Origin: Candidatus Kapaibacterium sp.
Lineage (GTDB): Bacteria > Bacteroidota > Ignavibacteria > Kapaibacteriales > UBA2268
Reading direction: 5' to 3'
Length of the DNA: 64,000 nt
Assembly: GCA_963664875.1 (NCBI GenBank)
Contig: OY761611.1
Span: 2,112,001-2,176,000 of the forward strand
Shown here piece after piece: positions 15,001 through 21,000 of this stretch (its first letter is position 1; each line of letters opens with the position of its first letter). Made by a program: the position numbers.

Positions 15001-18000
15001 TAGCGATAATCTCTAATGACTGTCATTAGAAAAAAGAAGATATAACATGTTGATAAATAGTGCTTTAGCAGATATTAAAAAAAGTCTATATTAGGAAAAC
15101 AGATGTAAGAAAATCTTACGAAAAATATGGATGTAAAAATTGCTTTTACCGACAAAGAAATTACACCTTGGGCAGGTATTTCTTTGATGCAAAATATGCT
15201 AAAAAAAATGTCTTTTGATCAAATATTAAAAGATTTGGCGTTACCATCACAGGGTTCGAATAGAGGTTACAAACCAGAACAACTAATACAACACTTTTTA
15301 CTGGGTATTTGGTGCGGTGCAAGTTGCTTCGAACATTTAGAAGTAACAAGACATGACAAAGTCATCCAAAATTTGTTTGGATGGTCAAAAATGGCTGGAA
15401 GCAAAGCATTTCACAGATATTTTAATAAGTTTTCTCAGGCAACAAATCAACAGGTTTTTGATGAGCTTTACACTTGGTTCTTCAATAATTTTCAGTTTGA
15501 CAACTACACAATTGACTTTGATTCTACGGTGATAACTCGCTATGGAAATCAGCAGGGTGCTGCAAAAGGTTATAACCCTCGTAAACCGGGAAGGAATTCA
15601 CATCACCCTTTGCTTGCATTTGTCTCAGATTGCCGAATGATAGCCAATTGCTGGCTTCGGCCCGGCAATACCGGTGCATCAAGCAATTTTCTGAGTTTTT
15701 TGGAAGATACACTTTATAAGCTTGGTAATAAAAAAGCAGGTTTAATCCGTGCCGACAGCGGATTTTACTCAGACGAAATAATGAAATATCTCGAAAGTAC
15801 CAAACATAATTATATAATAGCAGCAAAGTTTTACAGACCTTTGAAAGTAAAAATTGCCAAACATACAAAATGGTGGCCTATAAGTAAAGGTTTAGAAATA
15901 GGCGAAACAAGCTACCAATCAGACAACTGGGATGAACCCCGCCGAGTTATAATGATAAGACAGTATGTTCCACAACGTCCTAAAGCAGTCGGAAAACAAT
16001 TGAGCTTTTTCGAAGGAGACATGCAATTCAAAGATTATCGCTACTCTTGTTTTGTAACAAATTTGGATTTGCCTGCACAAATAATATATGATATGTATCG
16101 TGGGAGAGCCGATTGCGAAAATAGAATCAAGGAGATAAAGTATGATTTTGGAGCAGAAAATTTCAATATGCGCAATTTTTGGGGTACAGAAGCAGCACTA
16201 AATTTTGTTATGATTGCCTATAATCTGATGAGTCTGTTTAGGCAAGCAGTTTTAAAAACTAAAAAGCAAAATTTTCTAAGCACACTCAGATATAAGACTT
16301 TTGCAATAGGCGGATATTTAATTAAAGATGGAAATTCTAAAATTTTGAAGTTATCTTTAGCAATGCAAAGGAGGCAATGGTTTAAGGGACTTTGGAGTTC
16401 GTCAACCTATATAAAATTGCCTCATGTGCTTTAATATGATATTTCTAATGACAAATTTGGGTTTAAAGTCTTCAAACTGTGACTCAAGATATTAAAATTG
16501 CTCATTTCAAGTTTCTCTGTTCTAAGATTATTGCTGACAGCTCTTCATCAGAAAGGTGTTGAATATCAGGGTAAGTAATTGTTGCTGATTGAGCCAAGGA
16601 AATATATTTTGACACGGTTTTGCGTGCAACTCCAAGAGAGTTTTCTATTTTACGCATGGAATGATGCTCGTGGTGCATTCTTAGAATTTGTCTGATATCT
16701 ATCAATGAAATACTTTTGTTAGTCATACACAATGCCCTCTACCTGTGACCATAATTATCAATTTAGAGGGACTCATTTTTTATGCCATGTTTGGTTTGGT
16801 GAAAAGTGGAGTTCTTTCACCGAAATATCAATAATATTCTAATTGGTCACCATGGGGCAGCAATCTTACACCAATCGAACCAAATATTAGAAGTTTAAAA
16901 CCTCACGACTTCCTTTTAAATCCTTCACCAACATAAGTTCGGATTGGATTACCACGCTCCAAATCCCAATGATTTAGCCAACGATCCCTTTCGGCATCAG
17001 AATGATTTTTGTCGTCAATATGTTTAATAATACCATATAGTCGTGATACAGCAAGACTTTTATTCCTTAGTTGGGAGCGTTCTTCACTTGCTAAAACGGA
17101 TATATTCGAAGGGATATGAGTTGCTCTGACTGCTGTTTCCACCTTGTTAACATTTTGTCCACCCGGACCTGAAGAACGTGTAGTTTCAAATTTTATATCA
17201 TTCTCTGAAAATTCAGTTGGCTTTGGCATTGAAAGAACATTTACTCCTACATACCAATTCTTTCTTTTATGGTTTTTACGGTAAGGGCTTTGTCCTATCC
17301 AAAGAATAGTACCAGTCCATGATTCCAAGAATGATTTTAAATTATCACCTTCTATACTTAGGAGTGCTGATTTCAAAGTGCCTCGTTTCTGTCCACTGAC
17401 TTTTTCAAGTATATCTAACTTAAGTTTAAACCCCTCTGCTTCTTTAGTAATTTCATTAAGAACCTTATTTACCACCCAAGCACATTCTTCGGGACATCTA
17501 CCTGCAGTAAGTTGTAACCAATGCAAATTCTTATTTCCGTTTATTTATAATATTGATAAATAGTTTTGAAGTCAACCCATATAATCTTTATGCGTGAGAT
17601 TTCTTCAAATGACAGATGCTGATGATCATATAGTTCATGCAGCATAAATGTATGTATAAAGCTGTTTAAATCAGATTTGTCATCTGACAAATTTTTAAAT
17701 TCATTGTGATCGTAATTATTTGAATAATAGAATTTTTCAATATAATCTTCCAATTTATTAGAAGAATCATAGCTCAAACTGTCGGAGAAACGAGCTATAT
17801 AATTATCATCATCTTCTTTATAGGCAGGATCACCCTCACCTATAGAAAATTCAATTTCCCATTCAATTTCAAAATCTCGAACCCAATCATAATAATCATC
17901 AACTCTTGCCTTAGCGACTTTATACTGCCTATTTACTTCATCTTTGATAAGGACATTAATTTCGCGGAATCTTTCATTCAATTTCTTAACTGATTGCACA

Positions 18001-21000
18001 ATATCCTGCCATTTTTCATCGCTTTGTGTTTTTGTTATTCTATGAGCAAAGCTTATATCTTGATCGAGCTTTTTTATAATGCTACTAAATTGCTTGTATT
18101 TACTTTCTACAACTTTATTTACTGCATCAAATCCTCTTATTCTACGAAGAGTTGAGGGCATACTCAATACATTAAATTTCTCACTGAGCACAACTATTTC
18201 CTTGTTTTATAAGTAATAATTGGTTTGAGCTGAGCCAGTACTTTTATTATTCCTGCATCAGCCAATGCTGCAATTATATGCTCAATATTCTTGTATGCCT
18301 GTGGTGCTTCTTCGTATAAGAGATTTTTATCTTCACAAATTACGGCACTTCCAATTTCGGTGAGTTGCATTTTATCAATTGTATATTTATCACCAAGGAT
18401 AGATTTAGCGTTTTTACGTTTCCACTTTCTACCCGAACCATGAGCAAGTGAAAAAAGATTTTGTTCCTGACCACCAATAGGTAGCACAAGGTAGCTATAT
18501 GTACCACGAGACCCTGCAATTACAACAGCACCAAGGTCTGAACGAGCCGCACCCTTTCTATGTAAGTAGTATTCTTGATGACCAACAGTTGTTTTAGCAA
18601 TACAGTTGTGTTCTACATCTAAAACCGTCTTTGAAAAACTACCTAACTGTTCTAAAAACCTTTCAGCAATCAGCTTTCTACTTAGTTTTGCCCAATGAAC
18701 CGCATTATCATGTTGCTGAAGATACTTAGTTGCCTCTTCAGATTCTATTTTGAGCCCAGTAGAAGTGTTTGTTTCTGCAAATTCTTGAAAAATTGCAGAT
18801 CCAAGGCTTCTTGAACCACTATGTACTAATAATACAAGATTCTTTGAATCAACTCCTAAATCTAAAAGAGCGTTTTCATCAAAAACCTTTTCAATAGATT
18901 GAAGCTCTGCAAAATGGTTTCCACCACCAATTGTACCAATAGAAGAATCATATGAGGTAGATTCAACACCTGCTTCTTCCATAATAGCATTTATATTCCC
19001 ATCATAAGAATCCTCTAAGCCTGATAGCTTTCTGACCCACTTATCTCTTTTGATTTTAGATTTCTTTAGGTCTGTTTGGAATAATGCCATTCCACATCCC
19101 ACATCATTGCCAATTAAATGCGGATAAATAATCTTTTGTGTTGCTATGGTAACTCCTACTGGTCCTGAATGGATGTCGGGAAGCCCAATAGCTTGTTGAA
19201 CACCTTCAAGTTCAGAAACAAGCTTAAGTTGTTCGATTGCTTCGCTTTCTACCCAATTTTTGTCATTAGTTATTAGCTTGATTTTGTTGTTTATTTCTTT
19301 GAACATAGATTTTCTTTTAAATTATAATTGCTGAAATATACTTCAATGAGTGTCAAATCTTGTCGTTGATGTATAGATTTGAGTTTGCTATTGTTTTTTT
19401 GCATATCCCCATGCTTCCCAAACTTTTTCCCTACCATAAGATTCAAAGCTATTAACAAGCTGCAACTCCTGAAGCACTTGTAAATCTCGTTCAACGCTTC
19501 TCTGAGCTACATCATCACCTGAAGAATCTAATTGTAGCAAGATTTCTCTTTTTGTCAGTTTTAGACCTTTTAGAAACATTTTAAGAATTGTCAAGGTTCG
19601 AAAGGTTTTGTTTGTCGATGCCATGATTTCTCTCTCCAAAATTTTACAAATGGAGTATCAAGTAGCGGACTTTTTTTGCTTAAAAGCCGTATCCTTTTGC
19701 CACCGTGGCTACCTTGCTCGGTTGGCACACTACTTAAAGTGTTCTTGATACTATTTCTAAATAATACGTCAAAAATTGTAATTCGTTACAATTTAATCTA
19801 CCGAAATAAGCACAACATCTCATCACTTTGTTAAAAGTGTTCACAAAGAAAAAATAAAATTTATCAAAATCGTTTTATCTATCCTCCAAATATTTTTTAT
19901 GAGCAGCTACAACGTCTTCTGTTGTACTTCTTATGTATTTTTGTAATGACTTAATTGATTTATGACCAGACAGTCTGCAAACAGTAGATAGTGGAACGTT
20001 TTCATGTATCAACCAAGTAATAAATGTCCTTCTTGCAGTATGACTTGAAGCAGCTTCATATTTCGGTATCCTTTTTTCAACACGTTCCTTGCCTCTGAAA
20101 GAAGTGAGTATTATATCTTGATTTATCTCTGCCATTTTGCAAATTTCTTTAATCTTCCTATTGTAAACTTGACTACATTCTTTTGGTAATTGATAATTAT
20201 ATTTTTCAAGCATTTCTTTTGATATTTCATTATATGCGACAGTGACAGTTGTTGTTGTCTTTAGCATCTTAAAAGTAAGAGTTTGTTGACTCTTGTCAAA
20301 ATTTTCTGGTTTAAGATTAAACAAATCACTTACTCTTACTCCAGTATCAATTTGAAAGAGAAATAAATCTCTGTATTTTAAAATACCATCATCTAAATTA
20401 ATGAGATTTCTTATCCGATTTACTTCTACTATAGTTAGATAGATTGAATCTACTTCCTTCTGTATAACTTTCAATCCTTTTTTGTAAGCTACGGATGTAT
20501 GCCATTGTTGCTCATACGCATATCCCATAAATGTCTTTACTATTTTAACAACCTTACCAATAGAATTATCAGATAGATTATTTTGAATTAAAAATGTCGA
20601 AAATTTGCCTGCGAACACATCACCAACAGTAAAAAATTCTAATTGGTAATTTTCTTTTTTTACAAAGTTTTTTAAATGATTATAAGTAGATAAATAGCTG
20701 TCGATAGTTGATTTTTTTATCTGATTGCCATTACTCAATCTTATACCTGTTTTGGATCTCTCTATAAATTCTCTGAAATAGTCAAAAAATGTTTCTAAAG
20801 ATTTTGATGGATTGATTGTTCTTTCCAACTCATTTTTAAAATCTTCTTTTAGAAGAGGCAACATATGGCTAATTTTATTATTGTAAAATGTTACCATATG
20901 TGATTCGATTGTATGGAGAAAAGAATTTAGGTTTGTTGTATTTGTTGCACTACTTTTGAATCTCTTTTTCTTCTTATCCCAAAGTCTTTCGGAAAACTGT

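Follow-up and report, generated by a model that had tools for sequence, protein, structure and literature searches.

A candidate SAM-I/IV riboswitch ahead of a gene string with rtcB2 and prfH at the end of a duplicated island segment in Candidatus Kapaibacterium sp.

The window analysed here, a stretch of 64 kb from the genome of Candidatus Kapaibacterium sp., contains a string of four genes on one strand, composed of HTH78, rtcB2, orf216 and prfH and preceded by an RNA leader (Table 1). RtcB2 matches the models NF007153 (485.3 bits, cut-off 407), TIGR03073 (437.4 bits, cut-off 271.8) and PF01139 (236 bits), and PrfH matches TIGR03072 (246.9 bits, cut-off 166.65) and carries the GGQ motif in the sequence SSGPGGQNV; both proteins are therefore over the NCBIfam equivalog cut-offs, and the identities given in a first-pass annotation of this DNA stand. 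PrfH lacks release-factor domain 1, since its RF-1 domain match spans residues 105-199 only, and its match to the 200-position TIGR03072 model ends at residue 201. Orf216 belongs to no Pfam, NCBIfam, PHROG or PADLOC family. An exhaustive HMMER search returned 177 proteins at E<=1e-3 (24 at E<=1e-10), with conservation in residues ~65-215, and a word-index search found no close relatives outside the genus. Its AF2 model, built with an alignment (pLDDT 84, pTM 0.80), has no fold match (none at E<=1e-3 with Foldseek; best Z of 4.4 with VIA-align). In PADLOC, RtcB2 and PrfH have no match, and HTH78 and Orf216 reach only E values of 0.02-0.03. Across the copies of the string described below, pN/pS is 0.21 for RtcB and 0.28-0.37 for PrfH.

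Table 1. Features of the locus, in window positions
Feature	Position	Strand	Basis or remark
Other arm of the duplicated ~21 kb segment	1..8546		99.3% identity, genome 2110373-2120546 vs 1377184-1367009
prfH, short 207-aa form	16903..17526	-	TIGR03072; starts 14 nt past orf216 stop
orf216, 216-aa product of an uncharacterised family, between rtcB2 and prfH	17541..18191	-	Starts 2 nt past rtcB2 stop
rtcB2, RNA ligase of the release-factor-associated subfamily	18194..19306	-	NF007153, TIGR03073, PF01139
Spacer HTH78-rtcB2, 81 nt	19307..19387	-	Sequence reading
HTH78, 78-aa putative winged-helix protein, first gene behind the switch	19388..19624	-	ORF, ATG at 19624
Expression platform, four parts	19622..19662	-	Sequence reading and predicted hairpin
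AUG of HTH78	19622-19624	-	Sequence reading
SD UGGAG	19634-19638	-	Predicted anti-SD:SD hairpin
Anti-SD ACUCCA, overlaps anti-P1	19651-19656	-	Predicted anti-SD:SD hairpin
Anti-P1 CUUGAUACU	19654-19662	-	Perfect 9-nt complement of P1 5' strand
SAM-I/IV aptamer, helices P1-P4	19662..19756	-	RF01725, 69.3 bits
P1 5' strand and J1/2 AGUAUCAAG	19744-19752	-	Inside the aptamer
Conserved ~35-nt block, presumed promoter region	19757..19791	-	Directly upstream of the aptamer
Tyrosine integrase, immediately upstream, outside the duplicated segment	19875..21107	-	Phage_integrase, Phage_int_SAM_5, Arm-DNA-bind_5
HTH78 paralogue, 49% identical, no aptamer ahead	21448..21690	-	tblastn; no second RF01725 match in the window

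The first gene had been annotated as small and winged-helix-like. Its 78-aa ORF is confirmed, but every family match lies below cut-off: 18.4 bits against FUR (cut-off 23.1) and a weak match to the N-terminus of the PADLOC WYL family (E 0.031), with no match in NCBIfam or PHROG. Its Atlas look-alikes are hypothetical proteins of 74-90 aa, one set of which carries FokI_D3 on 14% of its members, and no close relatives beyond its own genus were found by word-index search. HTH78 is nevertheless a real gene, as judged from a pN/pS of 0.11-0.16 between copies, the 49% identical paralogue and an Atlas recognition score of 3160. In the 81-nt spacer between HTH78 and rtcB2 neither a terminator-like nor a promoter-like site above chance was found; it holds a single 7-bp inverted repeat, which the other two copies do not share. 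The promoter motif TAnnTTTG occurs once inside HTH78 (at 19451; 1 observed against 1.7 expected, not above chance).

The RNA leader matches the SAM-I/IV model RF01725 over its whole length (69.3 bits against a cut-off of 41.1, model positions 1-99 of 99), and this was the sole Rfam family detected across the window at gathering thresholds. SAM-I/IV is the 'SAM-I-IV-variant' of Weinberg et al. 2010 (PMC2864571), its crystal structure being that of Trausch et al. 2014, as cited in PMC6890682. The class is defined by one continuous P2, without the internal loop/K-turn of SAM-I and without the PK-1 of SAM-IV (PMC2864571; PMC6890682). P2 of the aptamer (CACUUU/AGUGUG around a 4-nt loop) aligns without an internal loop, and the consensus letters of the core (AUCAAGA, GCCAACC, GGUGGC and GAU.CGGC) are matched. 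In an alignment of 16 related aptamers of the family, 84% of the cells are paired (P4 is just 50% paired in this MAFFT alignment), and 11 of 23 helix pairs have changed on both sides, a value that none of 500 shuffles equalled and that lies far above the 1-5 pairs of slid controls. A candidate for PK-2 was read by eye both in type A leaders of this genome (P3 loop GGUAGC with the 3' tail GCUAC(U)) and in a congener, G094 (P3 loop ACUU with the tail AAGU); by sequence reading, without a systematic count, no clear partner was seen at the equivalent place in types B and C. Judged by its full-length score and its covariation, the aptamer is taken as a genuine SAM-I/IV riboswitch, which would be expected to bind SAM.

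Behind the aptamer lies an expression platform in which an anti-P1 is fused to an anti-SD. This design, with an anti-P1 of 9-11 nt and an SD hairpin (short in type A, 5 bp), is present in all three type A copies, and 13 of the 16 family aptamers share it, so that the translation-hiding platform described earlier is borne out by complementarities that recur in related leaders. It is not general in the wider sample described below, where an anti-P1 of at least 8 nt was found in 10 of 76 cases (3 of 76 when shuffled). The leader has the clear layout of a translational switch for the first gene, with OFF as the direction predicted from the pairings. With SAM bound, the aptamer would close P1 with its own 3' strand, so that CUUGAUACUCCA, the second copy of this strand further downstream, could base-pair with the SD UGGAG and mask it. 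Without SAM, the P1 5' strand would be captured by its complement downstream, which offers 9 bp rather than 5; the anti-SD would then be sequestered and HTH78 translated. Upstream, the ~35-nt block is common to both copies of this genome, to G094 and to a further genome, G095; a motif scan of the block identified no promoter motif. The homology of the duplicated segments X/Y stops at window position 19791 and that with G094 at 19792.

Five copies of RF01725 are present in the whole genome (69.3, 68.1, 61.7, 61.7 and 53.0 bits), of which the two highest are the strong pair previously scored at 69 and 68 bits; their genome positions agree with a window start at 2112001. A check of the other SAM riboswitch classes, of which the first-pass annotation had named SAM-II, -V and -VI as a gap, gave none at cut-off in the whole genome: the best matches were 18.4 bits for RF00162, 18.3 for RF00521 and 21.8 for RF01726, while RF01826, RF02885 and RF00634 had no match at E<=1. 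The claims that no SAM-I copy exists and that no recognisable SAM or methionine gene lies behind any of the five aptamers hold. The metK gene and two metB/C-like genes occupy other places in the genome, and the regions upstream of them contain no Rfam family at E<=1. One ~21 kb segment, which occurs twice in this genome (in inverted orientation) and once in the congener, bears an inward-facing aptamer at either end: copies 1 and 4 in one instance, copies 2 and 3 in the other. Copy 4 (genome 2110420-2110511), together with the P200 and P155 genes, begins ~1.6 kb before the start of the window. All five aptamers had been placed in defence or mobile islands; the setting is right, but their five-fold independence was overstated, because ends of one duplicated segment leave only three independent contexts. 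Type I restriction-modification, tyrosine integrase, McrBC and CRISPR-Cas I-B neighbours are all confirmed by Pfam. The integrase next to the aptamer has no counterpart upstream of copy 2 or of the copy in G094.

The DNA of the type A copies differs by 4-8%, and homology from one copy to another breaks off 35-47 nt ahead of the aptamers. In the second operon copy rtcB is, as had been noted, split by a frameshift (into ORFs of 79 and 300 aa). The same gene order, from aptamer to prfH, is also found in the congener, with a shorter counterpart of orf216 (a 148-aa ORF), and the restriction of the arrangement to this genome and one congener (2 of 130 family genomes, one genus) was upheld. The split rtcB and the shorter orf216 suggest that selection on the string may be weak. 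The congener contains, in addition, a plain adjacent rtcB2-prfH pair (4-nt gap) without HTH gene, orf216 or aptamer, whose products are 67% (RtcB) and 76% (PrfH) identical to those linked to the switch; the 67% identical rtcB paralogue free of an aptamer thus exists, but in the congener and not in this genome. In G095 the upstream block and the aptamer recur, but the genes behind them are unrelated and no such platform is present, so that recombination between leader and cargo is free; homology with G095 stops near nucleotide 71 of the aptamer. The four-gene arrangement itself arose by recombination recently, at the level of the genus.

The subtype was followed in a wider sample of 100 loci from other genomes and viral contigs, in 80 of which 88 aptamers were validated; 18 of the 20 lowest-scoring loci were also above the Rfam cut-off. 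The first ORFs behind these aptamers (n=83) comprise 3 metK genes, all in Emticicia loci and directly behind the subtype, 26 members of an ~85-aa family (no Pfam or NCBIfam match in 3 members tested), 8 FGase-like genes and a diverse remainder. Most of the aptamers sampled, viral contigs included, stand before uncharacterised genes. Among the genes that follow the subtype in other Bacteroidota and in viral contigs are also NADAR-, AAA- and OLD-like ATPase genes and a large number of orphans. It is widely used in these bacteria and contigs as a leader of accessory genes rather than for SAM metabolism.

With slightly more confidence than doubt, we read the element as a SAM-I/IV riboswitch that acts as translational OFF switch on HTH78, the first of the four genes of the string. 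A shared transcript is inferred from the common strand of rtcB2, orf216 and prfH, the gaps of 81, 2 and 14 nt and the lack of a detectable terminator, and high SAM would then lower the three downstream genes by polarity (through lost translation-coupled protection), by HTH78 acting as their regulator, or by both. Of the earlier claim of a riboswitch ahead of an rtcB-prfH operon, the order and the single strand stand, whereas control of rtcB2, orf216 and prfH, the weakest step, is deduced from strand order and spacing, the first gap being 81 nt. This gap makes an independent promoter before rtcB2 possible, and it may be that the switch governs HTH78 only, a transcription factor in that case, with rtcB2-orf216-prfH, and possibly more of the segment's genes, read from a promoter of their own that HTH78 controls and SAM acting indirectly. 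We consider this rather unlikely, although the platform is of a wholly translational kind and is placed at the start of HTH78, the untranslated gap of 81 nt contrasts with 2 and 14 nt at the other junctions, and HTH78 resembles small stand-alone winged-helix proteins and has a paralogue that adjoins the integrase. The gap contains no promoter- or operator-like element above chance, its inverted repeat is missing from the other two copies, and DNA binding by HTH78 is only putative, with all its family matches below cut-off.

The leader may also be mobile: a portable, recombination-prone element could have joined the string recently by accidental cassette shuffling, with no selected link between SAM and ribosome repair. 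The confinement to one genus, the plain pair in that same genus, the damaged rtcB of copy 2 and the short orf216 of G094, the end of homology just upstream of the aptamers and the different cargo in G095 all agree with such an origin. We nonetheless hold it to be improbable, because the platform, HTH78, RtcB and PrfH are under purifying selection (pN/pS values above) in copies that differ by several per cent in DNA, and the same two-switch segment has been retained in two species. In general, riboswitch classes are known to include variants with a changed ligand. An RNA that fits the SAM-I/IV model yet responds to a different ligand (SAH, for example, or a metabolite derived from SAM) would account for gene sets without a tie to SAM and for the rarity of metK among the first ORFs. 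Such a change of ligand seems very improbable indeed, given the high score over the entire model, the matched consensus letters of the core and the presence of the same subtype before metK in Emticicia.

Textbooks present SAM riboswitches as regulators of sulfur and methionine metabolism. In this genome, in contrast, no known RNA leader precedes metK or the met genes, and the only SAM riboswitches are at the ends of a duplicated island segment, before a ribosome-repair module and orphan genes, an unusual pairing. A full-text literature search gave nothing on topic linking a riboswitch with RtcB/PrfH, as stated before, or SAM riboswitches with defence islands, phage SAM lyase or mobile elements. 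We put forward as a speculation, more doubtful than likely by far, that the island SAM-I/IV switches are alarm sensors, by which a collapse of the SAM pool would de-repress second-line repair and defence genes. The collapse could be caused by SAM-degrading enzymes of invading phages (which would disarm the SAM-dependent type I restriction-modification systems adjoining the segments), by attack from competitors or by starvation. The genes released would be the RtcB2-Orf216-PrfH string at one end of the ~21 kb segment and the P200/P155 genes behind the second inward-facing switch at the other. This logic would also explain the subtype before NADAR-, AAA- and OLD-like ATPase and orphan genes. If mobile and defence genes do use the SAM level as a state or danger signal, a riboswitch class that has been studied well would gain a new role, and RtcB2-PrfH would have its first known regulatory input. 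In either case, the 85-aa, P200, P155 and Orf216 families are testable candidates for SAM-linked functions.

Compared with known systems, the leader resembles SAM-I/IV (RF01725) in its full-length match well over cut-off, in P1, an unsplit P2, P3 and P4 with covariation, in an A-rich tail whose GCUAC could pair with GUAGC of the P3 loop as a candidate PK-2, and in its predicted OFF-type platform concealing the ribosome-binding site. It differs in that it is located at the ends of a duplicated island segment and is followed by a putative winged-helix gene and a ribosome-repair module, and in other copies of this genome by the unknown P200/P155 genes, not by SAM or methionine genes.

The gene pair itself is that of Escherichia coli, where RtcB2-PrfH, in the passages of PMC9304027 devoted to it, frees and re-ligates ribosomes cut in the 16S rRNA decoding centre by ColE3-like ribotoxins, with PrfH, a homologue of release factors, as the protein that rescues ribosomes damaged at the decoding centre (parts of PMC9223846 and PMC13166195 also cover this rescue and repair pair). 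As in E. coli, both proteins are over equivalog cut-offs, rtcB lies ahead of prfH on one strand and PrfH is of the short form; with 207 aa it is not of the type that a section of bioRxiv 10.1101/2025.01.09.632186 describes for most Flavobacteriia (225-250 aa with a conserved C-terminal tail). According to the account of Baranov et al. 2006 (PMC1586002), as far as it bears on the pair, rtcB and prfH are always adjacent or overlapping, whereas in each of the three type A copies orf216 (651 nt) separates the two, and the putative winged-helix gene and riboswitch ahead are a further difference from the E. coli pair. E. coli rtcBA is regulated by RtcR/sigma-54, a protein activator that senses RNA damage, in the relevant part of PMC12606134, and the present string would likewise be an RNA-repair ligase operon held off until a stress signal, although here a metabolite-sensing RNA precedes the operon and the RtcB subfamily also differs.

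The gene string that begins with HTH78 (a putative winged-helix gene) and continues with rtcB2, orf216 and prfH is preceded by a SAM-I/IV aptamer (RF01725), the sole Rfam family above gathering thresholds in the 64-kb window. Across 16 aptamers from the same bacterial family (130 genomes compared), the Rfam structure is 84% paired and both sides change in 11 of 23 pairs, a number that none of 500 shuffles equalled (slid controls gave 1-5 pairs). As predicted from its complementarities, the leader is a textbook translational platform, in which an element complementary to P1 overlaps an anti-SD. 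If SAM binds and the leader responds, this arrangement predicts that the switch would be OFF in the presence of SAM and ON in its absence. Taking the aptamer as real, a SAM-sensing OFF switch probably acts on HTH78. The same three-part design, with complements of 8-11 nt, is found in 13 of the 16 family aptamers (the exceptions are those of genomes G095, G055 and G054), and the anti-P1 platform shows no overall enrichment in the wider aptamer sample described below. The strong aptamer with a translation-hiding platform reported in the first-pass annotation is borne out by the model score, the covariation and the SD-hiding complementarities.

Features of the window, in window coordinates
Feature	Position	Strand	Remarks
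SAM-I/IV aptamer (RF01725)	19662-19756	(-)	Rfam 69.3 bits (cut-off 41.1); all 99 model positions
5' strand of P1 plus J1/2, AGUAUCAAG	19752-19744	(-)	perfect complement of CUUGAUACU
P1-complementary element, CUUGAUACU	19662-19654	(-)	overlaps anti-SD
Anti-SD, ACUCCA	19656-19651	(-)	can pair with SD
SD, UGGAG	19638-19634	(-)	9 nt before AUG
HTH78	ATG at 19624	(-)	78 aa; sub-threshold matches only
rtcB2	19306-18194	(-)	NF007153 485 bits (cut-off 407); TIGR03073 437 bits
orf216	18191-17541	(-)	starts 2 nt after rtcB2
prfH	17526-16903	(-)	TIGR03072 247 bits (cut-off 167); GGQ present; 14 nt after orf216
IS transposase DDE_Tnp_1_4	within 15127-16732	(+)	435 aa; directly downstream of prfH
Tyrosine integrase	21107-19875	(-)	directly upstream of aptamer, same strand
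HTH78 paralogue	21448-21690	(-)	80 aa; 49% identical; no aptamer; upstream of integrase
MmeI-family R-M enzyme (896 aa), DEAD/ResIII helicase, T5orf172, REase-ARP, then DUF4917	23162-31669
cas operon, type I-B-like (Cas6, Cas3, Cas4, Cas1, Cas2)	37156-44899
CRISPR array, very long (~18 kb)	45653-63482		66-nt period; repeat CATCTAATCGCACCACTGTAGTATTGAAAT

HTH78 has sub-threshold matches only, one to the winged helix at the N-terminus of WYL regulators and one to FUR (18.4 bits, cut-off 23.1). It is a real gene: pN/pS between copies is 0.11-0.16, a paralogue is 49% identical and the proteins that resemble it are small, stand-alone ones. The paralogue is preceded by two small ORFs, of 113 and 181 aa, that belong to no family. 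Control by the riboswitch that would reach rtcB2-prfH is the weakest link. In its favour are the single strand, the tight rtcB2-orf216-prfH junctions and the lack of any terminator-like site between the genes of the string, together with the sensitivity of untranslated leaders to polarity; against it stand the 81-nt gap between HTH78 and rtcB2 and the possibility that HTH78 is a regulator itself. Promoter and terminator scans gave nothing above chance. An operator in the HTH78-rtcB gap was considered and rejected, since the 7-bp inverted repeat found there is not conserved. That the switch also lowers the repair string when SAM is high is possible, its chances lying a little short of even.

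The genome (G000), a single contig of 3.83 Mb and 36% G+C, has five RF01725 matches in three contexts. Type A, the aptamer of copies 1 and 2, stands before HTH78-rtcB2-orf216-prfH. Behind type B (copies 3 and 4) lie the genes for two orphan proteins, P200 (200 aa) and P155 (155 aa), and behind type C (copy 5) those for a P200 homologue and two P155-like paralogues. P200 and P155 have no family in Pfam, PHROG, PADLOC or NCBIfam, and for P200 the best Atlas score is 0.78, with 4 close clusters only. These two paralogues (genome 18436-20845, L005/L205, and L201) share an N-terminal part of ~85 aa and differ in their C-terminal parts (237 and 360 aa), as is typical of gene families that diversify or are polymorphic. 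As the first-pass annotation held, no recognisable SAM or methionine gene lies behind any of the five copies. Elsewhere in the genome sit metK and two metB/C-like genes, upstream of which no Rfam family is found at E<=1. SAM-I, in line with the earlier claim, and SAM-II (two models), SAM-V, SAM-VI and SAM-IV do not reach the cut-off anywhere in the genome among the candidates scored (the first 150 for some models).

BLASTN shows that genome positions 2110373-2131791 and 1377184-1357509 are two copies of one ~21-kb segment, inverted relative to each other; both arms are 95-99% identical and the middle is variable. A type B aptamer lies at one end and a type A aptamer at the other, both facing inward, and homology stops 35-47 nt upstream of each (on the window side it reaches 19791). 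The congener G094 has the segment in single copy, with homology stopping at the same two places, and its orf216 is a shorter ORF of 148 aa. The split rtcB reported for the second copy was recovered as ORFs of 79 and 300 aa in copy 2. The region 15127-16732, where the segment copies differ, also holds a 76-aa IS21-like HTH fragment. Aptamers may serve as recombination joints: homology ends near each of them, and in G095, compared with one of the segment copies (copy Y), it ends inside the aptamer.

Both segment copies are flanked by a type I R-M system on one side and a CRISPR-Cas I-B locus on the other. The R-M systems comprise HsdM, HsdS and HsdR with embedded Abi_2, Fic and IrrE/PIN genes, and the type A aptamer of copy Y has HsdR directly beside it, oriented divergently. 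The window contains three integrases and a DUF4917 gene, and copy 5 of the aptamer lies near McrBC and a UvrD/PD-(D/E)XK protein. These R-M, CRISPR-Cas, integrase and McrBC neighbours therefore support the earlier description of a defence or mobile island. The cluster of MmeI-family enzyme, helicase, T5orf172 and REase-ARP between integrases looks like a further defence system. The middle of the CRISPR array consists of a ...GAAAA variant of the repeat, a second cas I-B locus adjoins the other segment copy, and T9SS sorting domains are present in window proteins, consistent with Bacteroidota.

In the family, RF01725 is sporadic (15/130 genomes at E<=1e-3, 10/130 above the cut-off). At the 16 places above the cut-off, the aptamer is followed by HTH78 in three and by P200-family genes in ten (nine by BLAST cluster, L010 by eye); the others are one P155-like gene, one 268-aa gene of no known family followed by an AAA_15/DUF3696 ATPase, and the G095 case. 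Of the five weaker places, four carry a SAM-I-like leader with a terminator; met genes follow three of these, and an unannotated 463-aa ORF follows the fourth. Leaders of this kind before met genes at L015, L018 and L019 (in the relatives G120, G117 and G119) score just below the RF01725 cut-off; G000 lacks a leader of this kind, yet retains metK and the metB/C-like genes.

For a wider sample, public collections were scanned with a motif from the aptamer core, giving 22 IMG/VR stretches and at least 118 genome stretches. A hundred loci were searched (the 22 viral ones and 80 of the at least 118 genome loci, minus L033 and L034, which were obvious coding matches), a sample biased by the search motif and by the share of genome loci covered. 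With the covariance model built here, 80 of the 100 loci proved to hold aptamers, 88 in all; the positive loci include 15 of the 22 viral ones, and Rfam confirms 18 of the 20 lowest-scoring loci (the exceptions are L035 and L121). A first ORF follows 83 aptamers and five have no ORF nearby. The commonest gene (26/83, nine on IMG/VR viral contigs) belongs to an ~85-aa family (L030-L127, 26 loci; consensus ..FN..VGN.GW.S.RA.HD.ALIDE...RGIDVSA..) hosted mainly by Prevotella and other Bacteroidales; Pfam and NCBIfam match none of the three members tested, and the family profile finds nothing in the PDB below E 0.01. FGase-like genes (PF05013) account for eight, metK for three, nine small clusters for 20 and singletons for 26. 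Pfam assigns no family to 27 of the 40 first-ORF representatives examined, and the rest include NADAR, AAA, AAA_15/DUF3696, TerB and DUF6847. Two show sub-threshold NCBIfam similarity to anti-phage proteins (NADAR DS32_2, 64 vs 240 bits; IteA, 101 vs 510 bits). In this biased sample, most of the genes behind the subtype are uncharacterised, non-SAM genes, and viral contigs carry some of them. Integrase-like matches occur in 5/80 wider-sample loci (575 kb) against six places in the 3.83-Mb genome, and tRNA genes in 5/60 and 5/20 loci; both proxies of mobility are weak, and general mobility of the wider set is therefore not claimed. Multiple SAM-I/IV aptamers occur within 8 kb at several loci: L051 (Flavobacteria bacterium BAL38) has four, and L057 (Chryseobacterium gleum MAG), L115, L037, L102 and L116 have two each. 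In L057 each aptamer precedes a 142-aa ORF, with a full metK afterwards.

The single-sequence fold of orf216 is poor (pLDDT 47) and the alignment-based model is confident (pLDDT 84). Against solved folds this model gives no Foldseek match at E<=1e-3, and VIA-align reaches a Z of 4.4 at best. An exhaustive HMMER search found 177 proteins at E<=1e-3, conserved over residues ~65-215, with no Pfam family in any of 48 members and nothing among PDB sequences below E 0.01, which shows orf216 to belong to a thin, unnamed family. It occurs in 2/401 sampled Bacteroidota genomes; in G189, the one other sampled genome with the family, the orf216 relative lies apart from rtcB.

RtcB2-PrfH has been shown experimentally to be a defence against decoding-centre ribotoxins, in which PrfH frees the damaged 70S ribosome of its peptide and RtcB2 seals the cut in the 16S rRNA of the 30S subunit (PMC9304027). 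Why low SAM would call for ribosome repair has three candidate answers. A collapse of SAM could be a sign of attack, because SAM is required by the type I R-M systems nearby; low SAM could instead be a marker of general starvation, or there may be no selected link. The feature is real and the observation in the first-pass annotation is correct, and its interpretation is supported in part only. The full-text literature searched, which omits most subscription journals, yielded no paper that joins a riboswitch with RtcB or PrfH, as had been noted before, and none that joins SAM riboswitches with defence islands, phage SAM lyase or mobile elements. The riboswitch class is known, its regulatory setting here is unreported, and a broader, unexplained pattern lies behind it.

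The pairing itself has a narrow distribution. True PrfH is found in 2/130 family genomes, twice each in G000 and G094, and HTH78 and orf216 have close relatives in the genus only. G095 has the same upstream block and aptamer, adjoining a homologous hsdR, and its homology to G000 stops at about nucleotide 71 of the aptamer; its cargo is a NifS-like and radical-SAM gene cluster, and the SD-hiding platform is absent. From this switch-over and the restricted spread it follows that leader and cargo recombine and that the pairing with rtcB2-prfH is recent, and the switch is best read as sitting on a young, mobile island segment. The second pair of G094 is a canonical adjacent rtcB2-prfH (4-nt gap) without HTH, orf216 or aptamer, its RtcB 67% and PrfH 76% identical to the window proteins, which fits the aptamer-less rtcB paralogue at 67% identity mentioned earlier. 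The insertion of orf216 between rtcB2 and prfH is atypical, because Baranov et al. 2006 (PMC1586002) describe the two genes as always adjacent. The window PrfH, at 207 aa, also differs from the form of 225-250 aa with a C-terminal tail that bioRxiv 10.1101/2025.01.09.632186 gives for most Flavobacteriia.
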